Shown here: positions 48,694-58,837 of the stretch, piece after piece | Layout of the letters: every line of letters starts with the position of its first letter | Numbering within the stretch: position 1 is the stretch's first letter | Source: an uncultured Acidimicrobiales bacterium | GTDB lineage: Bacteria > Actinomycetota > Acidimicrobiia > Acidimicrobiales > SZUA-35 | Assembly: GCA_963723995.1 (NCBI GenBank) | Contig: CAVRSZ010000001.1 | Coordinates: forward strand, 1,307,573-1,371,572 | Direction of reading: 5' to 3' | DNA length: 64,000 bases | Position numbers and translations under genes: made by a program | The notes under the pieces: generated by a model | Told to the model about the DNA's origin: nothing | What the model saw: only the letters and a program-made list of their open reading frames with translations | Database searches by the model: none

Positions 48694-49240
48694 ATGTCGC
48701 GTCTTCCGTCCTGGTTACCGGGGCCGGCCCGGGATTCGATTGCTGGCTTTCTGGCAGGCTCGGCGGGGATCCCTCCGGAGCAGCGTCTCGCCGTTTTCGA
48801 CAACGACGGGACTCTGTGGTGCGAGAAACCCCGCTATCCCCAGCTCGACTTCCTCATCTGGCAACTCCGGGGCGCCGTGGCCGAACAGCCCGACCTGAAC
48901 GCTGCTGGCCGCACTCGAATCCCACGGCTTCACCAACTGCATCGTGTCCGGCGGTGGCACCGAGTTTGCTCGGGCCATCAGCCAGCAGGCCTACGGTATC
49001 CCGTCGGAACGAGTGGTCGGCACACTTGTCACCTACGAACTGGTCGAGTACACCAACAGCAGCGCGCTTCCGAGTCTGGCCCTGCTGGTGAATCACGACG
49101 ACGACCGGCGGGAGTACGCGTACGAGAGTGTGGCAGGAAGCTTCGAGTCTCACGAGACGATCACGGAGACGGCGGCCAGGCTCGGTTGGACTCCGATCAG
49201 CATGAAGGAGGACTGGGCAACCGTGTTCCCATGTCGCTGA
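48694..49240 (+). pseudogene. HAD-family hydrolase remnant with internal deletions
   Basis: LPSW...AVFDNDGTLWCEKP, then out of frame IVSGGGTEF...GIPSERVVG joined directly to LLVNHDDDRREYAY...ISMKEDW. Core motifs III/IV are missing. Confidence 0.8.
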
Positions 49241-49263
49241 ACCACGCCCAGCTCCGCATCCGG

Positions 49264-50469
49264 TCAGTGGCCGATGGCAGCGGCGGCGTCGACCATGATG
49301 AGATCGTGCCACCAAAGCCGTTGGAAGAGCTGCGGCGAGGAACCGCGCAGGTCGCCCAGCGCCCGTTCATCATCGAACTGCTCGACGATTCGCCGGGCTT
49401 CGGCGTCCAGGAAGAACACCAGATCCCGATCGGTGTGGGCTCGGTTGATCAGCACGGCAGCGATCCCCGGAGGTAGCCGATCCTCGACCATGGTCACCGT
49501 GGTCGGCCGGATCGGCACATAGCTCCGCCAATCCTCGCCGTTCCAACGCACCGGATGCGTCGGTAGAGGGGAGTCGTTGCGGTAGGCGATCACGCTGTGA
49601 CGCGCCATCGTGCCCCGGAAGAGTTCGAGGGCGGCGAACTGTTCGGGTTCGGGCATCGCCGCGATACGCCGACCGTGCGGCACTTCGGTTATGGCCCCAC
49701 ACTGTGGTCGATACGGTGCCTGGCGGACCCAACGACCGAATCGCAGGCCTGCACCCTCGATCAGGCCAAACACTTCGGGGACCGTGTAGGAGCGATCGCG
49801 AGGGTTGAGCAGGGCGTCGGCCAGGGCATCGTCGTGAGCGAAATCCGGCGTGTCTCGCAGCAGGTGGCTCAGCGGATGACCAGCAGGTAGCTCCCTGAGG
49901 GTCGCCACCAGGTCGCCGATGTCGTCCGGTTCGGGTTTCACACCGAGGCGCCGACAGTAGTCCTGCAGGAGGTACACGCCGAAACGGCCGTACGATGCAT
50001 AGACCATGAGGTGGATCGCACCGGTTGGCGCCAGTGCGTTCCGGAGGGTTCGGAGACCGACCTCCGGATTGGCCAAATGGTGCAGGACGCCGGTGCACAC
50101 GATGTGATCGAACGATGGCCCGAGTTCGCCGGCCTCCTCGATCGGCATGCGGTGGAGCTCGAGATTGGTGAGCCCGTACCGTTCGGCGAGCCGCCTGGTG
50201 GCGCCGATGCTCGTCGTGCTGACATCGATCCCGACCACCCGGGCGTTCGGATACCTCAGTGCGTATCTCGCCGCCTGCGACGTGCCGCACCCGGCGATCA
50301 GTACCGCGTGATCGTCCCGGTACGGTAGGGACGGCCACATACGAGCGTGCTCCACCCGTCGGCGCCGGCCGTCCCTCCAGGCGGCAGCATCCTCGTCCAA
50401 ACCGTCGACGGGCGGAGGATAGGGGTGCTGATCGTAGAACCGGGCGATCTCATCGTCATGGACGGACAT
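49264..50469 (-). CDS. Class I SAM-dependent methyltransferase
   Basis: FYDQHPYP, VLIAGCGT, FDHIVCTGVLHHL. Confidence 0.88.
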   Translation of the reverse strand: MSVHDDEIARFYDQHPYPPPVDGLDEDAAAWRDGRRRRVEHARMWPSLPYRDDHAVLIAGCGTSQAARYALRYPNARVVGIDVSTTSIGATRRLAERYGLTNLELHRMPIEEAGELGPSFDHIVCTGVLHHLANPEVGLRTLRNALAPTGAIHLMVYASYGRFGVYLLQDYCRRLGVKPEPDDIGDLVATLRELPAGHPLSHLLRDTPDFAHDDALADALLNPRDRSYTVPEVFGLIEGAGLRFGRWVRQAPYRPQCGAITEVPHGRRIAAMPEPEQFAALELFRGTMARHSVIAYRNDSPLPTHPVRWNGEDWRSYVPIRPTTVTMVEDRLPPGIAAVLINRAHTDRDLVFFLDAEARRIVEQFDDERALGDLRGSSPQLFQRLWWHDLIMVDAAAAIGH

Positions 50470-50475
50470 CCAGCG

Positions 50476-50799
50476 TCACCCGCCGCCGGCCTCGACGCGC
50501 CGCACGGTCCGGGATCCGAGGTGGCTCGTCCCGGTGTCGATCACCTGCGGCCGGCGAGCAGCCGGGCGGTGTCGCCGGCAGTCGTTGGCGGCGCTGAGGA
50601 ACGACCGACCCTTGACGACCCGACGAACGCCGAGAACTGCTCGTTGGTGACGGTCGTCCTCGACATGAGGAGGCTGTCGACGCCAATCCGCTGATCCGGC
50701 GCCTTCCCGAGGTAGTGGCGGTCCGACCCCCATGGTGAAGGTCCCGGCGGGGACGTTCATCATGGTGGGCCGTTCCGCGACGATTCGCCTCGAGATCAC
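50476..50799 (-). pseudogene. Formylglycine-generating enzyme (SUMF1/FGE) remnant
   Basis: VPAGTFTMG, (shifted frame) SDRHY...TVTNEQFSAFV, joined to RVVKGRSFLSAANDCRRHRPAAR...DTGTSHLG. The central part of the gene is absent. Confidence 0.8.
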
Positions 50800-52286
50800 G
50801 TACTGGCGATACCGGCCTGGAGCTTCTCGAGCATCGCCGACACGGTGAAACTCGACGACTCCTGACGGGGCGGGAATTCGACCAGTGTCTGCGCCATCTC
50901 CATCACGTAGGCCTGAGCCGGCACCAACAGATAGGCCCGATCGATCAGCCAGTCGTAATACGTGTTCGACGTGATGTCCGCACGCTCGAAGGGGTCGGTA
51001 CGAAGGTTGAAGATCTTGGGCACCCGCAGTTCGGTGAACGGCTCGGCCCAGATCCGCAACGTCCCGGCGGCCCGTTGCTCCAGGAACACGATCTTCCAGT
51101 TGTCGAAGCGCAACGCCATCAGATCGCCATCATCCGAAACATAGAAGAACGAGTCTCGACCACTCTCGACCGCGTCACCGGTCAGATAGGCAAGCTGGTT
51201 GCAGCCATCCAGATGGACCTTGTACTCGGTGCCGTTCAGATCGTGGCCCGCCTTGAGCTTCCCCACAATATCGTCCTCGCCGGCGGCGGCGAGAAAGGTG
51301 GGCAGCCAATCGGCGTGACTGACGATGCCGTTCAAGATGATGCCGGCCTCGATCCGGCCCGGCCAGCGCACCAAGCACGGGACTCGGAAGGCCCCCTCCC
51401 AGCACGAGTTCTTCTCGCTTCGGAACGGGGTCATGCCACCATCGGGCCACGTGTTCATGTGCACGCCGTTGTCGGTGCTGTAGACCACGATCGTGTCCTC
51501 GGCGAGGCCGAGCTCATCGAGCAGGTCGAGCATCTTCCCGATGCGCTTGTCGTGCTCGACCATGGCGTCGTGATACTCCGACTGCCACGGTCCGGCCTGG
51601 CCACGGATCTCCTCGGCGATGTGGGTGCGGAAGTGCATGCCCGTGGTGTTGAACCATACGAAGAATGGCGTGTCGTTGTCGGCGGCGTCGCGAATGAAAC
51701 GTTGAGCGGGCTCGATGATCTCGTCGTCGATCGTCTCCATCCGCTTCTTGGTCAACGGCCCCGTGTCCTCGATGCGGCCGTCGGCGTAACTGTGGATCAC
51801 ACCCCGTGGGCCGAACCGTTCCCGAAAGTTGGGGAAGCGTTCGGGATCCGGGTAGTCGACGTTCTCAGGTTCCTCCTCGGCGTTCAGATGGTAGAGGTTG
51901 CCGAAGAACTCGTCGAAGCCGTGATTGGTGGGGAGGAACTCGTCCCGATCGCCGAAGTGGTTCTTGCCGAACTGGCCGGTGGCATAGCCCTGGGCTTTGA
52001 GCGCGGTAGCGATCGTCGGATCCTCGTCACGCAGACCGAGATCGGCGCCCGGCAGTCCTACCTTGGTGAGACCAGTCCGATACGGGTTCTGGCCGGTGAT
52101 GAAGGCAGCCCGTCCGGCAGTGCAGGACTGCTCGCCGTAGTAGTCGGTGAACCGGGCACCCTCGTCGGCGATCCGATCGATGTTGGGTGTCCGGTACCCC
52201 ATCAGGCCGTCGCTGTAGCAGCTCAGATTGCTGATCCCGATGTCGTCGCCCCACAGGACCAGGATGTTCGGCTTTCCGTTCGGCAT
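50796..52286 (-). CDS. Arylsulfatase (Cys-type)
   Basis: KPNILVLWGDDIG, SCTAGRAAFITG, GKNHFGD, STDNG, WEGAFRVP. Confidence 0.93.
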   Translation of the reverse strand: MPNGKPNILVLWGDDIGISNLSCYSDGLMGYRTPNIDRIADEGARFTDYYGEQSCTAGRAAFITGQNPYRTGLTKVGLPGADLGLRDEDPTIATALKAQGYATGQFGKNHFGDRDEFLPTNHGFDEFFGNLYHLNAEEEPENVDYPDPERFPNFRERFGPRGVIHSYADGRIEDTGPLTKKRMETIDDEIIEPAQRFIRDAADNDTPFFVWFNTTGMHFRTHIAEEIRGQAGPWQSEYHDAMVEHDKRIGKMLDLLDELGLAEDTIVVYSTDNGVHMNTWPDGGMTPFRSEKNSCWEGAFRVPCLVRWPGRIEAGIILNGIVSHADWLPTFLAAAGEDDIVGKLKAGHDLNGTEYKVHLDGCNQLAYLTGDAVESGRDSFFYVSDDGDLMALRFDNWKIVFLEQRAAGTLRIWAEPFTELRVPKIFNLRTDPFERADITSNTYYDWLIDRAYLLVPAQAYVMEMAQTLVEFPPRQESSSFTVSAMLEKLQAGIAST

Positions 52287-52477
52287 CTGTATCTACTCCT
52301 TTGGAACGATGTACACGCAGGAATTCCGCACCAACACTAGCTGCGGAATCAACCTGGCGCCCCAACCCCCGGCCGTGAGGGGCCAAGCTGGATTTGGGTG
52401 GCCTGGACCACTGGGTTCGGCGCCGGTTCAACCCATCGAATCGGACTGAGCGCTTGGCGCCATGCCATACTGTCACG

Positions 52478-53812
52478 GTGGCGAGTGACGGCGAGCGAAT
52501 CGGGCACGAGCCGAACCGACCGTTCACCGAGAGGGTGTTCGGTCGGGTCGTCGGATCCGTGGTGTCGCCGGTGGTCGACAACGTCGACGTCGATGAGGTG
52601 GTCGCGAGAATCGATGTCAACCACCTCGTCGAGCGGATCGATCTCGATGAGCTCATCGAGCGGATCGACGTCGATCGGCTTATGAGCAGGGTCGACATCG
52701 ACACACTGCTCACCCGGGTCGACATCAACGAACTCCTGGACCGGATCGACGTGGACCGGCTGCTCGGGCGCATCGAGCCCGACCGATTGATCGAGCGGGT
52801 TGATGTCAACGCCATGATCGAGCGGGTTGATGTCAACGCCATGATCGAGCGGGTCGACGTCAACGCCATGATCGACCGGGTCGACATCAACGCCATGATC
52901 GACCGGGTCGACGCCGACCGACTTCTGGCCCGAGTCGATGTCAACGCCATGATCGAGCGGGTCGACGTCAACAACATGATCGAGCGGGTCGACGTCAACA
53001 ACATGATCGAGCGGGTCGACGTCAACGCCATGATCGACCGGGTTGATGTCAACACCATGATCGACCGGGTCGACGCCGACCGCCTCATGAACCGGGTCGA
53101 CGTCAACGCAGTCGTGGAGCGGACCGAGCTCGGTGCCATCATCGCCCGGTCGACGACCGGAATCTTCGGCCAGCTCCTCGACGTGGCCAGAACCCAGTTG
53201 ATCGCCGTGGACCAGGTGGTGCAGGCGGTTCCGGCCCGAGTGCTGCGAGGCCAGGCCCGGGAGGTTCCCTACCTCCCATCGGGCCCCTCCCCCATCGGGG
53301 ACCTGCAGGCCATGTCATTGCCCCAACGGGCGGTCGCACTTCAACGCCACTCGGCCGGGTCGGTCTCCCGATTCCTCGCCTTCCTGGTCGACCAGTTCCT
53401 GGCCGGTCTCCTGTTCACCGGTGGTCTCGTACTCACCTCGGCCGCACTGCAAGTGGTGATCGGCGTCGACCTCGACATCGAGAGCGACTCAACCATCATC
53501 GCCCTCGCCTATGTGTCGTGGCTCTTCCTCTACTACGCCGGCTCACTGGCGGCCACCGGTCGAACGATCGGCAAGGCCGTACTGGGTCTCATGGTCGTTG
53601 AAGCGGACGGCCACAAACTCACGGGTTGGGCACCGGTTGTCCGCACCATCGTGTTCCCGATCAGCTTTCTGCTCTTCGGTGTTGGCCTGCTCATCGGTCT
53701 GTTCCGTCGCGACCGCCGTCAACTCCATGACCTGGTGGCCGGTACCGCCGTGATCTACGCCTGGGACGCAGCGACCGCCCAGCTCCGGGCCGACACCACC
53801 GAGCCTTCCTGA
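52478..53812 (+). CDS. RDD family membrane protein with a long N-terminal 9-aa repeat region
   Basis: RFLAFLVDQ, GRTIGKAVLGL, RRQLHDLVAGTAV. Start uncertain (frame open from 52394). Confidence 0.85.
   Translation: MASDGERIGHEPNRPFTERVFGRVVGSVVSPVVDNVDVDEVVARIDVNHLVERIDLDELIERIDVDRLMSRVDIDTLLTRVDINELLDRIDVDRLLGRIEPDRLIERVDVNAMIERVDVNAMIERVDVNAMIDRVDINAMIDRVDADRLLARVDVNAMIERVDVNNMIERVDVNNMIERVDVNAMIDRVDVNTMIDRVDADRLMNRVDVNAVVERTELGAIIARSTTGIFGQLLDVARTQLIAVDQVVQAVPARVLRGQAREVPYLPSGPSPIGDLQAMSLPQRAVALQRHSAGSVSRFLAFLVDQFLAGLLFTGGLVLTSAALQVVIGVDLDIESDSTIIALAYVSWLFLYYAGSLAATGRTIGKAVLGLMVVEADGHKLTGWAPVVRTIVFPISFLLFGVGLLIGLFRRDRRQLHDLVAGTAVIYAWDAATAQLRADTTEPS
52583..53122 (+). repeat. 20 x 27-bp coding tandem repeat (consensus VDVNAMIER)
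   Basis: Counted 20 consecutive 9-aa units. Most units from 52799 on are near-identical at DNA level (GTCGACGTCAACGCCATGATCGAGCGG). Confidence 0.95.
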
Positions 53813-53872: not shown

Positions 53873-54259
53873 TCACGGGGCGTTGTGTTCAGCGGAATGT
53901 GGGTTGACCGCCTGCCACGGCCACCGACTCTCCATCTCGACCACCAGTGACCAGGCCAGAAATGTCCGAACCAGCACGAGCAAACCAAGTGCCGCAACGT
54001 TGCCGAGGGTCGGCTCCAGCGTCACCGTACGGATGACATCACCGGCGATGAGAAGATCCAACCCGAGCAGGAGCCCTCTGCCGATCTGGTGCTTGAAGGT
54101 CGTGTACGCAGCCGCCGGCGACTCGACGAGGGCGGTTCGAGCGGCGATGACAATGGCCAGGATGACGGCGACCCCGATCACCGACACGGCGACGATCTCG
54201 ATCCACTCCGCAACTCCGTTGGCGATCCGCCACTCGCCGATCTCGAATTCGCTCAGCAT
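53873..54259 (-). CDS. DUF1622 membrane protein
   Basis: GRGLLLGLDLLIAGDVIRTV, LVRTFLAWSL, EMESRWPWQ. Confidence 0.9.
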   Translation of the reverse strand: MLSEFEIGEWRIANGVAEWIEIVAVSVIGVAVILAIVIAARTALVESPAAAYTTFKHQIGRGLLLGLDLLIAGDVIRTVTLEPTLGNVAALGLLVLVRTFLAWSLVVEMESRWPWQAVNPHSAEHNAP

Positions 54260-54380
54260 GCAACCACCTTCCGAGGCTCGAAAGAGTCTAGCGCCGGAGC
54301 AGGCGCCCCACGAGAGCTTCATCCTCCGTCACGGCTTCTGGCCCGACCACCTTGATATCAGCTGAGATATCGTTTGGCCT

Positions 54381-56453
54381 GTGAGCTCCGACTTCCAGAT
54401 GATTCCGGCGCCCCCTTCGTTGCCGATCGATCGTCCGTCCACTCCGATCAGGGTGTGGCGTGTTGTGGTGTTGGCGGTTGCCCAGGCGGTCACCCTGCTC
54501 CTGGTGGATTTCTTGGTTGATGAGTTCCGTATCGATGGGTTTGTGAATGCGTTGGGGATGGTGGTCACTCTTGCGGTGCTCAACGCTGTGTTGTGGCCGC
54601 TGATTGTGCGGGTCACGCTTCCGTTGATCTTGTTGACGTTGGGTTTGTTCACCTTCGGGCTCAACGCTGTTTTTGTGTGGGTGGCGGCGGCGGTTGTGGG
54701 TGGGGTGGAGGTGGGGTCGTTCTGGTCGGCGATCGCTGTGGCGTTTTCCCTGACGGTGGTCAACATCGTTGTGGGTGGGGTCTTGTCGGTTGATGGCGAT
54801 CACGCCTGGCGCAGCAGGGTTGTGCGGCGGGTGGTGAACCGGGTCGAACCCCCGGAGCGGGGGGATGTTCCGGGCTTGTTGTTCATTCAGATCGACGGTC
54901 TGGGTCACGATGTGCTCGAAGACGCCATGGCGTCAGGACACGCCCCGTTTCTGGGTCGCCTGGTTTCGTCCGGCACCCACCGGTTGTTGGAATGGGAGTG
55001 CGATCTGTCGTCGCAGACCGGTGCCATGCAGGCCGGGATCCTGCTCGGCGACAATCACAACATGCCGGCGTTCCGCTGGTACGAAAAAGACACCGGGCGA
55101 ATCATGGTCACCAACCGTCCCAAGGACGCGGCCGAGATCGAGACCCGCCAATCCAGCGGTGTCGGGCTCCTGGTCGGCGGTGGGGCATCGAGGACCAACG
55201 TGTTCAGCGGCGACACCGACGACACGATGATGACCTTCAGCACCGCCGGGACGAAGATCCTGGGACGGAACCGGTTTCTGTATGTGATCTCGAGCCCCTA
55301 CGCCTTGTTCCGGATCATCGCGTTGGCTGTCGCCGACATCGGCCGCGAACTGCGGGCCGCCCGCCGGGCCCGGCGCCACGGTGTCCAGCCCTCTGTGCAT
55401 CGCGGTGGGGTGTATCCCCTGCTTCGAGCGTCCACGACCGTGGTGCTGGCCGAGATCACCTGGTCGGTTCTGGTGGCCGACATCGCCCGGGGTGTGCCAA
55501 CGGCCTATGTCGACCTGGTGGGCTATGACGAGGTCGCTCACCACTCGGGGATCGCCGCCCCCGACGCTCTCGACACCCTGCGACGCACCGATGATCAACT
55601 GGAACGACTCCTCACCGAGTTGTCGGACGCACCCCGCCCGTACTACCTGGTGGTCCTGGCCGACCACGGCCAAACCCAGGGGGCGACATTCAAACAACGC
55701 TACGGGGAAACCCTCGACGAGCTGGTGCAGCGTCTGGCCGGAGCCAGCGTGACCGCCCCGGTGTTGGCCGAGGAGGGCTGGAACAACGTGAGCGGTCTGC
55801 TCACCGATGCCGCCGCCGACGAATCAACAATGGGCAAAGTGGTGGAACGAGCCACCCGACGCCGAGCCGTCGACGGTGAAATCGTCCTCGGTCCGGCCAC
55901 CGAGCAACAACTCGATGACAACGACATCGTCGTGCTCGCCTCCGGGAACCTCGGCCTGGTCTCGTTCGCCACCCTTGCCGGACGGGCCACCCGCCAACAG
56001 ATCGAACACGCTCACCCCGGGCTGATCGAAGGGCTACGACACCACGACGGCATCGGTATCGTCATGGTCCGAGACCAGACCCTGGGCGACATCGTGTTGG
56101 GCCCGAACGGGATCCACCACCTGAGCGATGGCCACATCGAAGGCCAGGATCCACTCGCCGTGTTCGGGCCCAACACCGCCGAACACCTCCGCCGCACCAG
56201 CAGCTTCGACAACTGCCCCGACCTACTCATCAACAGCTTCTATGATCCCGTGGCCGACGAGGGCGCCGCCTTCGAAGAACTGATCGGCTTCCACGGCGGC
56301 CTCGGAGGCAAACAAACCCGACCCTTCATCCTGGCACCAGCCCAACTCCCCCAACCCGCCCACCCCCTCATCGGAGCAGCATCAATCCACCAACTGTTCA
56401 AAACCTGGGTCACCGCAACACAACAACCACCCACCAACACCCCAACAGACTGA
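54381..56453 (+). CDS. 4-TM 'phage holin family' (YvlD-like) domain fused to an alkaline phosphatase/phosphodiesterase-like domain
   Basis: LNAVLWP...LTLGLFTFGLNA; FIQIDGLG, SQTGAMQAGIL, GYDEVAHHSG, VLADHGQ, FEELIGFHGGLGG. Confidence 0.85.
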   Translation: MSSDFQMIPAPPSLPIDRPSTPIRVWRVVVLAVAQAVTLLLVDFLVDEFRIDGFVNALGMVVTLAVLNAVLWPLIVRVTLPLILLTLGLFTFGLNAVFVWVAAAVVGGVEVGSFWSAIAVAFSLTVVNIVVGGVLSVDGDHAWRSRVVRRVVNRVEPPERGDVPGLLFIQIDGLGHDVLEDAMASGHAPFLGRLVSSGTHRLLEWECDLSSQTGAMQAGILLGDNHNMPAFRWYEKDTGRIMVTNRPKDAAEIETRQSSGVGLLVGGGASRTNVFSGDTDDTMMTFSTAGTKILGRNRFLYVISSPYALFRIIALAVADIGRELRAARRARRHGVQPSVHRGGVYPLLRASTTVVLAEITWSVLVADIARGVPTAYVDLVGYDEVAHHSGIAAPDALDTLRRTDDQLERLLTELSDAPRPYYLVVLADHGQTQGATFKQRYGETLDELVQRLAGASVTAPVLAEEGWNNVSGLLTDAAADESTMGKVVERATRRRAVDGEIVLGPATEQQLDDNDIVVLASGNLGLVSFATLAGRATRQQIEHAHPGLIEGLRHHDGIGIVMVRDQTLGDIVLGPNGIHHLSDGHIEGQDPLAVFGPNTAEHLRRTSSFDNCPDLLINSFYDPVADEGAAFEELIGFHGGLGGKQTRPFILAPAQLPQPAHPLIGAASIHQLFKTWVTATQQPPTNTPTD

Positions 56454-58115
56454 TCACCGCCCGGCTCGGGCGATCCACTGCCTGGCGTCGTCGGCGGCAC
56501 GACGGGCGGTCGATCCGAGCCACTCGTCGGATCGGTAGATGTTGTCCTCTCCGATGATGGCGGCGACACCGGTGGCCGAAAGCTGACCGAGCACTCGTGT
56601 GCTGTCGGTCACGATCATGAGCTTGCTGTCGACGGCATGGAGTGAGGCTGCGTACCGGCCGAGCGTGTCGGTGAGCGTCGATCCCAGGTCGGTTCGGCCC
56701 CGCAATCGGACGATCACGACCGAGTTCGTCGAGGACGGGGTGACATCGGGCAGCAGGTCGCCGAAGGTGGATGCCGACGCGAAGAAGAGGCTGCCGTAGG
56801 GCTGGAGCAGCACAACGTCGCCGGCCGGGACGACCGCTGGTGGGTCGGCTTCCCGGAAGCGTTCGTCGACGATGAGGATCTGCTTGACGACGAGGTCGCT
56901 CGACTGCCGGATGACGAACAGCAGCACAGAGATGCCGACACCGACCAGAACCGCGAATTGGAGTGGGATCAGGATCGTCAGGATCAACGTGATGCTCATT
57001 GTCACGGCCTGGACCTGTCCGGTCTTCCAGACGGCGAGGATCTCGGCCGGTTTGATGGTGCGGAACCCGACGACGATCAGGAGACCGGCGAGAGCGGGCA
57101 TGGCGATCTCACCGACGACGCCGGCGAAAGCCACCACGATGACGGCCATGACGACGCTGGCCATGAGCTGGGCCGCCCTGGTCGCCGATCCTGCGGTTGT
57201 GATGATCGATGTGGCCGACATCGAACCACCGACCGGCATGCCCTGGAAGGTGCCCGACACCAGGTTGCCCACTCCTTGACCGATGAAGTCCCGGGAGGCG
57301 TCCGGGTAGCTGCGATCGGAGTTGGGGAAGTTGGCCGAGATTCCTGCCCCCTGGATGAGGCCGACGAAGGCGAGCGAAGCGCCGGGGATGAGCAGCGACG
57401 GGACCGAGGCCAGTAGTGGGAGGCGGGGAGCGGGAAGGCCGCTGGGGATCTCGGCGATGTCCTTGAGTTGGGCCACGTCGTCACCAAAGACAACAACGAG
57501 CGCCGAGCCGACGATGACGGCGACGACCAGGCTGAGGGCACCGAGCCTGGTTCGCTCCAGCCAGAGGATGAGACCGATGGTCGCAATCCCGACGACCAGG
57601 CTTCCGGCATCGATACGGTTCGGATGCAGGAGCAGGTCGAAAGCGCGGGCCAAACGGCTCGACCCGCTGGCTTCATAACCGGTGAAATCGTCGAGTTGGC
57701 CCAAAACAATATTGATGCCCACGCCACTGATGAAGCCGACCATGACCGCGTTCGACACGAAACGCAGCACGGAGCCGAGCTTCAGAAACCCGGCGATCAT
57801 CATGAACACACCGGTCACGATGGCCAGGGTGAACAGCACACGCTCCGGATCGTCGCCCTCACGAACCTCGGACACATCGGCCACGACCGCCGCCATCGCC
57901 CCGGTGGCCTGTACCGTCATGAACTGCGAACTGGTGACCAGGGCGGCGCCGAACATGCCGAACATGTAGGCGTAGAGGCCGTAGATGGGGTTGACCCCGG
58001 CCAGAAGACCGGCAGCCAGACCATCGGGCACACTCTGACCCCCCAGAACGACTCCCGCCACCGCATCGTTCTTGTTCGTGTCGCGACGTAGCAGTGCCCG
58101 CAGTCGACCGAGCAT
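56454..58115 (-). CDS. SulP family anion transporter with STAS-like C-terminus
   Basis: AGLLAGVNPIYGLYA, MPVGGSMSAT, YGSLFFASA. AAGGA before ATG 58115. Confidence 0.9.
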   Translation of the reverse strand: MLGRLRALLRRDTNKNDAVAGVVLGGQSVPDGLAAGLLAGVNPIYGLYAYMFGMFGAALVTSSQFMTVQATGAMAAVVADVSEVREGDDPERVLFTLAIVTGVFMMIAGFLKLGSVLRFVSNAVMVGFISGVGINIVLGQLDDFTGYEASGSSRLARAFDLLLHPNRIDAGSLVVGIATIGLILWLERTRLGALSLVVAVIVGSALVVVFGDDVAQLKDIAEIPSGLPAPRLPLLASVPSLLIPGASLAFVGLIQGAGISANFPNSDRSYPDASRDFIGQGVGNLVSGTFQGMPVGGSMSATSIITTAGSATRAAQLMASVVMAVIVVAFAGVVGEIAMPALAGLLIVVGFRTIKPAEILAVWKTGQVQAVTMSITLILTILIPLQFAVLVGVGISVLLFVIRQSSDLVVKQILIVDERFREADPPAVVPAGDVVLLQPYGSLFFASASTFGDLLPDVTPSSTNSVVIVRLRGRTDLGSTLTDTLGRYAASLHAVDSKLMIVTDSTRVLGQLSATGVAAIIGEDNIYRSDEWLGSTARRAADDARQWIARAGR

Positions 58116-58400
58116 GGTCGTTTCCTTGTCCACGGCTGCCCTACCGGGCTGTCGCCCAGTCGGAGGGAATGCGAAAGCCATCCCCGTCAACCCGGGCCGG
58201 CAGCGTGCCCTGCCCATCAGCCGCCGAGGAGGCCCCGGGGCGGGAACGGTGGCTTCGGTCGCCACCGACTGACTGAGAATCCGACCGAGGATGCTTCCCC
58301 CGGTGCCGACGTCTACCAGCACGCAGCTACCCACCGGCTGTGCTGCTTCGAGGTCTCCCTCGAAATGGAACGTCCTGCCGTCGATCGAGTAACCCTTCAT
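58116..58400 (-). pseudogene. Possible N-terminal remnant of a HerA/DUF87-type ATP-binding protein, in frame with SulP
   Basis: MKGYSIDGRTFHFEGDL...VGSCVLV...LGRILSQ resembles, from memory, HAS-barrel-like N-termini. No P-loop follows. Confidence 0.35.
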
Positions 58401-58837
58401 GAGTCCGCCCGACCTGCGAGGGGGCTCCCGTCCGTGAGCTGGTGGGGTGGCTTGGGCGACGTGATGGCCGCCGAGTATGGCGCACCCCCGACCACGGAAC
58501 AACACAACTTGGCGCCGGTCGCTACGTTTGAAGGGTCCATGATCACAGCCTGCCTCGGAGTCATTGTCGATTGGTGTCCTCGATACCCGTTCGCCGTCGT
58601 CGACGATATCGCTGAACGGCCGAGACCGGAAGCCTATGGTCCGGCCTTGGCGGGCGGGCGCGCCGCGGGTCGGCCTCGCCGTTACGGCCGTCTCGATCGA
58701 TATCTCGTTGTCCCCGGCATCGTCGACGTGGTCGGCTCCTGGCCCGAGCGTCCCGATGGTGACACGGTTCGGCCGGCCGCCACCGGCGTGTCGAAATGGA
58801 GCAGGACGAGTTCGCTCGTTACACCGTCGATCGTTGA

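Follow-up and report, generated by a model that had tools for sequence, protein, structure and literature searches.

The window analysed here is a stretch of 64,000 nucleotides from the genome of an uncultured Acidimicrobiales bacterium (GTDB lineage SZUA-35; contig CAVRSZ010000001.1, positions 1,307,573 to 1,371,572 of the forward strand). It contains an open reading frame (ORF) at 54381–56453 on the + strand that is G+T-rich at its 5′ end, A+C-rich at its 3′ end and ordinary in the middle, and the base counts on which the initial annotation of the window based this description hold. The skew is a real, strand-asymmetric feature of synonymous sites and the most extreme of its kind in the genome. 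A second, inverted copy of the gene with the same skew lies 375 kb away, at C1:1736449–1738513 of the same genome (G000), and the skew probably records an ongoing mutual correction of the two copies.

The gene, its neighbours and its inverted copy

The gene has 690 codons and encodes a predicted membrane protein in which a four-transmembrane Phage_holin_4_2 domain (PF04020; amino acids 27–130, 70.6 bits against a cut-off of 28.8) precedes a type I phosphodiesterase domain (PF01663; amino acids 166–436, 39 bits against a cut-off of 23). No NCBIfam model matches the phosphodiesterase-like protein. Homologous ORFs of at least 600 amino acids number 152 and occur in Acidimicrobiia, Solirubrobacterales and related groups, the nearest named records being Acidimicrobiales metagenome-assembled genomes (MAGs). 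Within the genus the gene is accessory: it is present in three of 24 other genomes (G015, G009 and G011, at 88%, 78% and 53% identity), and its closest metagenome relative is 85% identical.

Skew was scored across a genome of 5.8 Mb in 8 contigs (65–67% GC), with 4,067 genes called crudely by their GC3. Third-position G+T content (K3) is accompanied by a z-score for its excess, conditioned on the amino acid and the codon box, with usage taken from the same 4,067 genes. The mirror statistic M is the keto (G+T) content of the first third minus that of the last third, and is strand-invariant. The features of the locus, in order along the window, are as follows.

48702–52286, strand not assigned: older inverted duplication of methyltransferase- and sulfatase-like genes, 75–86% identical to C1:1740067–1745520
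52394–53812, + strand: RDD-family gene with a 91% identical paralogue beside copy 2; no mirror skew (M 0.03)
53873–54322, − strand: DUF1622 gene (Pfam), found only at the copy-1 locus and divergent from the ORF
54381–56453, + strand: copy 1 of the skewed gene (ORF, Pfam), Phage_holin_4_2 plus type I phosphodiesterase/alkaline-phosphatase superfamily
54410–54920, + strand: 5′ ramp of G+T-rich synonymous sites, K3 0.65–0.82, z +2.9 to +6.2, fading toward mid-gene
54410–56475, strand not assigned: high-identity tract shared with copy 2 (98.9% over 2,066 bp, blastn), a putative gene-conversion tract
55760–56453, + strand: 3′ ramp of A+C-rich synonymous sites, K3 dropping from 0.30 to 0.07, z −2 to −6.8
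56454–58505, − strand: convergent SulP-family permease gene, a flank specific to copy 1

The tract shared by the two copies is bounded by genes that belong to the copy-1 locus. On the left, the DUF1622 gene breaks the homology with copy 2 and thus sets the tract edge, and the copy-1 locus carries about 470 bp more than the corresponding locus of G015; on the right, the edge is set by the SulP gene. Paralogous genes around the tract are less alike than the tract itself (RDD 91%, sulfatase 75%, methyltransferase 81%), and such a high-identity tract within diverged paralogous flanks reads as a likely signature of gene conversion. Identity between the copies is graded, at 100% over the last 60% of the gene and then 98% and 94% toward the 5′ end. 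All 13 differences past codon 27 are synonymous, and the tract starts 30 bp inside the ORF. Short-read contigs of one public sequencing run break at 54410 and 56463, where their loose ends are the flanks of copy 2.

Copy 2 appears to occupy the ancestral context, because the G015 locus is collinear with it over 4.5 kb, flanks included; metagenome loci are likewise collinear. The copies are 98.9% alike, compared with 84% identity to G015, while the distal flanks stand at 75–81% and the RDD pair at 91%, so that the duplication may pre- or postdate the split from G015.

At 56451–56456 the phosphodiesterase-like and SulP genes meet stop codon to stop codon with no intergenic bases, which means that each transcript must end within the other gene. 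Copy 2 similarly faces a convergent BrkB-family gene 6 bp away. Between the DUF1622 gene and the ORF start lies a 58-bp divergent intergenic region specific to copy 1, and it holds the sequence GATATC-AGCTGA-GATATC (54354–54371); described initially as a near-palindrome, this is a direct repeat of a palindromic hexamer rather than a true palindrome, and it may be an operator. Searches of Rfam and a promoter scan each returned no match, and seven terminator-like matches all fall within T-rich coding sequence. The N-terminal half of the RDD gene (52608–53155) contains diverged internal tandem repeats, about 70–78% alike at an offset of about 162 bp, which are also found in the paralogue beside copy 2.

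Strand skew and the direction of substitution

At 54600–54799, the GC skew is +0.38 and the AT skew −0.63, whereas at 56300–56499 the values are −0.43 and +0.38, with an unremarkable mid-gene. Scored in 60-codon windows, K3 reaches a maximum of 0.82 (z=+6.2, window from codon 50) and a minimum of 0.07 (z=−6.8, window from codon 630), and both windows lie in the outer 0.1% of the 131,230 windows of the genome. These conditional scores bear out the earlier view that the bias includes synonymous sites and that hydrophobicity is insufficient to explain it. The skew also persists at four-fold sites, where the keto share is 0.81 in codons 20–170 (A0 C18 G56 T21), 0.48 in codons 250–450 and 0.11 in the last 100 codons (A15 C36 G6 T0), the genome standing at 0.454 (sd 0.070; 150-codon windows, n=20,587). 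Conditional z-scores and four-fold sites together rule out amino-acid composition as the cause. GC3 varies between 0.62 and 0.92 along the gene with its minimum in the last window, and the skewed ends show no rise over the orthologues.

Genome-wide comparison places the gene outside the ordinary distribution. Among 3,209 genes (mean −0.21, sd 1.31), copy 1 and copy 2 have the most extreme linear-trend slopes, at −10.9 and −11.0, and these copies are the only two scanned genes that combine a maximum z above 4.5 with a minimum below −4.5. M is 0.53, exceeding that of all 2,367 single-copy genes (maximum 0.357). An assembly or consensus artefact is ruled out by independent short-read contigs, which match with no differences over 55563–56463 and elsewhere, and the same skew is found in a 97%-identical relative from another study's run.

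Each strand is G+T-rich at its own 5′ end, as initially described, giving a mirror polarity with a sign change near mid-gene. The turning points of the cumulative skew lie −58 and −13 bp from the edges of the copy-1 tract, and its peak lies at 0.54 of the length; change points found in this way are clean here and noisy in other repeat families, in which weak flank skews shift the minima. In the 200 bp on either side, skew does not follow the direction of the nearer edge, and neither the upstream leader nor the first 30 bp of the ORF is skewed. The idea of a process working from both ends is therefore retained in its geometry, inward on a discrete 2-kb unit, and abandoned as regards a mobile unit.

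Relatives of the gene lack comparable skew. Although the locus is collinear in G015, so that synteny is upheld, the orthologues are not equally skewed: those of G015, G009 and G011 are unskewed (|z|≤2.6). Across the 151 other homologous ORFs the contrast in K3 between the 5′ and 3′ ends has a mean of 0.03 (sd 0.077, maximum 0.33), compared with 0.65 here.

Changes on the lineage leading to the window gene were polarised by parsimony with G015 and G009 as outgroups. In codons 1–150, this lineage shows C>T 18, C>G 10, A>G 4 and G>T 4, compared with reverse changes of G>A 1, G>C 1 and T>C 1; in codons 601–691, it shows G>A 15, G>C 4, C>A 4 and T>C 3, with C>T 1 and C>G 0 in reverse. Changes on the G015 branch are balanced. 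Favoured changes are thus about 2-fold up and their reverses about 3-fold down, mirrored between the 5′ and 3′ ends, while the branch totals are similar at 138 for this lineage and 140 for the G015 control. Codons 1–300 carry 59 substitutions against 54, where about 78 would be expected if the extra changes of C had merely been added.

In six bins from 5′ to 3′, the ancestral third-position C has changed in 46, 43, 17, 22, 8 and 15% of cases and the ancestral G in 8, 5, 5, 26, 22 and 67%, whereas the control branch shows 16–34% in every bin without a gradient. Loss of ancestral G at the 5′ end (5–8%) is accordingly below that of the control branch (16–26%). C>G and G>C stand at 16:2 in codons 1–300 and 3:13 in codons 451–691, and C>T and G>A at 26:2 and 7:21 in the same segments. 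The axis of the bias is keto/amino and not GC/AT, with C<>G transversions polarised like transitions. Mutated C shows no preference at the −1 or +1 position (83 mutated compared with 352 unmutated C), which rules out a motif-specific deaminase.

Amino-acid identity is lowest at the gene ends (0.82 and 0.77, with middle bins at 0.93–0.94), pointing to a pressure at the DNA level rather than to constraint. At 56375 and 56417 the 97%-identical strain carries G and this genome A, indicating that the change is recent and continuing. Taken together, the substitution pattern looks like biased fixation and not like a burst of mutation.

Skew in other repeats

Dispersed repeat families were defined by a length of at least 800 bp and an identity of at least 90%, with the reservation that copies and paralogues are not independent observations. 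Of 13 such families in this genome, 8 have an M above the 95th percentile, 6 of them above the 99th, and none falls below the 5th. The positive families comprise two IS110, one IS21, two HNH (one with DUF222), an unknown ORF, a PT-HINT polymorphic-toxin pair and the gene described here. Slopes below −3 are found in 31% of genes with a paralogue of at least 90% identity (n=29), compared with 1.7% of genes lacking a paralogue of at least 80% (n=3,129).

Among seven insertion sequence (IS) families of Escherichia coli K-12, which possesses MutS and MutL, M is 0.06, 0.06, 0.10, 0.11, −0.20, −0.06 and −0.02, and none exceeds the 95th percentile. In other Actinomycetota, M is 0.17, 0.01, 0.30, −0.06 and 0.20 for IS110, 0.05 and −0.04 for IS3-like elements and 0.00 for IS256. 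Three of the five IS110 families (loci L219–L232, four genomes) are therefore moderately mirror-skewed (M 0.17–0.30), and the IS3-like and IS256 families of G080, G090 and G051 show no mirror skew. Mirror skew may partly be a property of IS110, and insertion sequences make a poor test since recent transposition, rather than conversion, may be what makes their copies alike. A wider association of repeats with skew is suggestive.

Two homologous loci from Acidimicrobiales MAGs (L129/L243 and L135/L244; 69% identical to the protein) have a milder gradient, in which K3 drops from about 0.55 at the start to about 0.2, for a contrast of 0.31–0.33. The L129 and L135 homologues are 93% alike at the nucleotide level, and one of these genomes holds a decayed partial second copy at about 70–73% nucleotide identity. 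As an independent case of duplication going with skew, these loci are suggestive only.

Outside the window, one-sided skew accompanies tandem repeats. A GerM/Gmad2/PG_binding_1 gene (G000:C7:664522–666171, − strand) has G or T at about 90% of third positions in codons 40–290, and this tract coincides with three tandem 249-bp units that are 99.2–99.6% alike. Its orthologue in G015 (partial, from codon 178) shares both the skew and its abrupt end, which makes this one-sided skew older than the mirror skew of the window gene. The most keto-rich coding strands of the genome (total z +8 to +18) lie at C2:67502–74345 and C2:317050–326254, likewise outside the window, and belong to two tandem PT-HINT polymorphic-toxin paralogues (92% over 2.1 kb) and two surface proteins with 7 and 17 SdrD_B repeats. 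In 17 of 22 genes with an absolute total synonymous keto z above 6.5, which are not independent of one another, the skewed strand matches the local (±150 kb) chromosomal keto skew, whichever strand is coding. It looks as if repeats amplify a replication-type skew.

Candidate mechanisms and implications

The reading that best accommodates these observations, held tentatively, is a strand-asymmetric biased gene conversion acting at the edges of the homologous tract, in a direction that the choice of mispairs by NucS plausibly dictates. A full-length NucS of 219 amino acids is encoded in the genome (NF002876, 348.6 bits against a cut-off of 252; PF01939, 120.5 bits), and neither MutS_V (PF00488) nor MutL_C (PF08676) was found in an assembly that is 94% complete. 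EndoMS/NucS is described as cleaving G/T, G/G and T/T mispairs and sparing C/C, A/C and A/A (PMC4838380). In Mycobacterium smegmatis, information from annealed oligonucleotides that forms dG-dT, dG-dG or dT-dT mispairs is reported to be erased in a NucS-dependent, short-patch manner, and information forming dA-dC, dC-dC or dA-dA mispairs to persist (PMC11551744). Synthesis-dependent strand annealing is given as the predominant route of homologous recombination in mycobacteria in a preprint (PMC13061034).

Under such a mechanism, a break in one copy would be repaired off the other copy by synthesis-dependent strand annealing. To the left of the break, the resident top strand, as the 3′ tail, would pair with a donor-templated bottom strand, and to the right the roles would be swapped. 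NucS would restore the resident strand at G/T, G/G and T/T mispairs, whereas A/C, C/C and A/A mispairs would escape it, so that the site would be converted in half of the daughter cells. Left of the break, G or T on the resident top strand would thus be protected and A or C overwritten, with the opposite outcome on the right. Usable breaks would be confined to the homologous tract, so that most of them would fall to the right of sites near its left edge and to the left of sites near its right edge. The net drive would peak with opposite sign at the two edges, vanish mid-tract and be nil outside. We infer all of these steps, and the action of NucS on inter-copy heteroduplex and its preference for the resident strand by analogy with oligonucleotide recombineering.

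Each of the keto-increasing changes C>T, C>G, A>G and A>T involves a NucS-active mispair in one heteroduplex and a NucS-silent A/C, C/C or A/A mispair in the reciprocal one. With two copies and complete conversion bias, the scheme predicts a rise of favoured changes of at most 2-fold, a loss of disfavoured changes and an unchanged total. It also predicts the sign of the skew, ramps of about 0.5–0.9 kb with a flat middle, a stop at the homology edges and indifference to gene orientation. A toy simulation of these rules gives the right sign and the right shape, with the total rate unchanged. Where the copies still differ in the 5′ half, copy 2 carries the keto base and copy 1 the amino base at 10 of 11 informative sites, which the model would expect if copy 2 is the usual recipient.

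Several known systems share part of this pattern. As in GC-biased gene conversion and concerted evolution, where heteroduplex of non-identical copies undergoes repair with a base preference whose effect resembles selection, favoured changes are up, disfavoured changes are down, totals are similar and the tract lies in diverged paralogous flanks. The present case differs in that the axis is keto/amino on a defined strand, GC3 is unchanged and the sign flips between the tract ends; a bias toward G:C irrespective of strand, the mark of GC-biased conversion, is not seen. NucS/EndoMS repair and the strand-dependent oligonucleotide recombineering of mycobacteria partition mispairs in the same way, with G/T, G/G and T/T corrected toward the resident strand and A/C, C/C and A/A passed over, and NucS is present here with MutS and MutL not found. 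That work concerns replication errors and annealed oligonucleotides rather than a paralogue footprint or recombination heteroduplex, and a link to the pattern described here would run through the shared mispair rule. Replication-associated skew has the same axis, a G+T excess on one strand, but the amplitude here is 10–20 times larger (about ±0.4 compared with ±0.02), and the sign changes within 2 kb, identically in two copies that face opposite ways within one stretch of contig. A full-text literature search found no description of strand-polar, keto/amino conversion with an edge effect.

A number of observations weigh against keto-biased conversion. The polarisation of changes relies on parsimony with two outgroups and on crude gene calls. 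The bias is at or above the two-copy maximum, with 10 of 15 ancestral G changed in the last bin compared with a background of about 20%, and because it sits at this ceiling it is likely that damage contributes or that repair adds some mutagenicity. The simulated amplitude is also too small, at 0.55 versus 0.39 where about 0.8 versus 0.1 is observed. Keto-neutral changes are polarised too: G>T outnumbers C>A by 4:0 at the 5′ end, and the 3′ end has the same ratio in favour of C>A over G>T. Two-step paths could account for this.

The repeats are uneven witnesses as well. Five of the 13 families of this genome, including the adjacent 91% RDD pair, have no mirror skew, and the strong negative slopes among genes with a paralogue of at least 90% identity come from only about five families. 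In other Actinomycetota, three of eight repeat families exceed an M of 0.144; all are insertion sequences. One paper is said to state in its title that NucS repair is independent of homologous recombination. Several tandem-repeat genes show a one-sided skew conserved in G015, which implies an additional or different process in this genome. A preprint on M. tuberculosis argues that NucS repair is reduced during recombination (PMC13061034).

The main rival to biased conversion, less probable in our judgement and still to be taken seriously, is single-strand damage suffered during recombination between the copies, on resected 3′ tails and nascent D-loop strands, or during replication stalling at the repeat. 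Each strand would be exposed longest near its own 5′ part, where C>T, C>G (through bypass of abasic sites), A>G and G>T would accrue before conversion spreads them. Polarity and gradient match the strand-exposure-time gradients of mitochondrial and retroviral DNA. The spectrum read on the exposed strand is alike at the two ends (C>T 18 and 15, C>G 10 and 4, A>G 4 and 3, G>T 4 and 4), and damage accounts for the keto-neutral G>T, a change outside the predictions of the NucS rule. The copy-to-copy differences in codons 76–306 comprise nine C/T and no G/A on the coding strand. The recent, continuing changes at 56375 and 56417 and the agreement of uniformly skewed repeat genes with local replication-type skew in 17 of 22 cases would also follow.

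What damage leaves unexplained is chiefly the balance of substitutions: the total is not raised, either over the whole branch or in codons 1–300, reverse changes such as the loss of 5′ ancestral G are depleted, and mutated C has no sequence context. Resection should moreover expose the flanks, yet the skew ends at the homology edges, and repair of breaks from the sister chromosome would cancel the asymmetry. Monotonic, strand-specific gradients of C changes with a strand switch are known from the mitochondrial heavy strand, from APOBEC3-edited retroviral DNA and from mutation clusters at resected breaks and in break-induced replication. The present pattern differs from these in having no rate excess, suppressed reverse changes, no motif and C>G polarised like C>T, and in being confined to a homology tract in a bacterial chromosome. 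The deamination footprint proposed in the initial annotation is consequently sustained by the excess of C>T (18) and A>G (4) but not by the equal polarisation of C>G (10 against 1), the unraised total, the suppressed reverse changes or the missing context; simple deamination is an incomplete account of the skew.

Transcription-associated mutation is improbable. It would expose the non-template strand at the 5′ end by sense transcription and at the 3′ end by antisense read-through from the convergent neighbour, and both copies do have a convergent gene within 0–6 bp (SulP for copy 1, BrkB-family for copy 2) that leaves no room for a terminator. The genome as a whole shows a slight trend in the same sense, its mean synonymous keto residual moving from +0.013 in the first gene decile to −0.007 in the last. 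However, the G015 orthologue has the same convergent layout as copy 2 and is unskewed, and the skew begins at the homology edge, sparing the first 30 bp of the ORF and the leader. The 3′ end of SulP shows no reciprocal effect, and the enrichment of skew among paralogues and the suppression of reverse changes are left unexplained.

Selection on the RNA is more improbable again. A G+U-rich 5′ end could pair with an A+C-rich 3′ end, or the 3′ end could load Rho while a C-poor 5′ end resists termination. Rho prefers C-rich, G-poor RNA, and third positions at the 3′ end are 63% C and 7% G. Folding 54446–54850 with 56050–56455 gains −94.5 kcal/mol, compared with −64.7±8.5 for 60 codon shuffles (z=−3.5). 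This outcome favours the end-to-end folding suggested initially, although the shuffles also erase the gradient within each segment, which alone favours antiparallel pairing, and orthologues with the same protein and neighbours lack the pattern, so that the support is weak. Rfam gives no match, and the best inverted end-to-end pair is 20 nt at 85% complementarity. The loosely inverted tracts noted at the two ends are not inherited repeats; they arise because the skew acts on a conserved protein sequence, the 5′ peptide being the same as in G015 and synonymously recoded. The same pattern is present in unrelated repeat families whatever the gene orientation, and amino-acid identity is lowest precisely at the ends.

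A small circle or non-autonomous mobile cassette, with nicking or copying from both of its ends, would suit two copies with sharp boundaries and, by strand displacement from both ends, a G+T-rich 5′ end on each strand, but it is very improbable: locus and flanks are shared with the orthologues, the G015 and metagenome loci run collinear with copy 2 through the gene and both flanks in place of an empty site or insertion polymorphism, there is no target duplication, terminal repeat or mobility gene, the tract begins 30 bp inside the ORF, the supposed end motif GATCAG (54446) is kept neither in copy 2 nor in the G015 orthologue, its counterpart CTGATC (56450–56455) consists of the two abutting stop codons, the loose contig ends are copy-2 flanks, no head-to-tail joint occurs in the assembled contigs of four runs (contigs can miss rare forms), and the supposed unit corresponds to the stretch that two inverted paralogous loci have in common at 98.9% identity.

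Tests for selection are strongly confounded by biased gene conversion, which also drives base composition and is known essentially as a bias of GC against AT. If keto-biased conversion of the kind preferred here extends beyond this locus, which is possible and somewhat more doubtful than its action on this gene, conversion in organisms with NucS in place of MutS and MutL would be strand-asymmetric, since the enzyme recognises keto-keto mispairs alone. Among repeats that correct one another, the resident strand would be driven to G+T, and dispersed repeats would acquire mirror skew at their edges, tandem arrays a one-sided skew along their length. Such a bias would act much like selection on the paralogues, insertion sequences and repeat proteins of Actinomycetota and many archaea, as a force not described before. 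It would account for extreme local skews and for odd codon usage among actinobacterial and archaeal repeats, and paralogous families, including mycobacterial antigen families, would be expected to give misleading signals of selection or horizontal transfer. Skew footprints could then map conversion tracts, their polarity and the usual recipient copy, providing a read-out of recombination polarity from sequence alone. Even if the cause is single-strand damage, the locus offers an unusually clean 2-kb natural record of a strand-switching process, complete with a dated outgroup and a 97%-identical strain that shows the process continuing.

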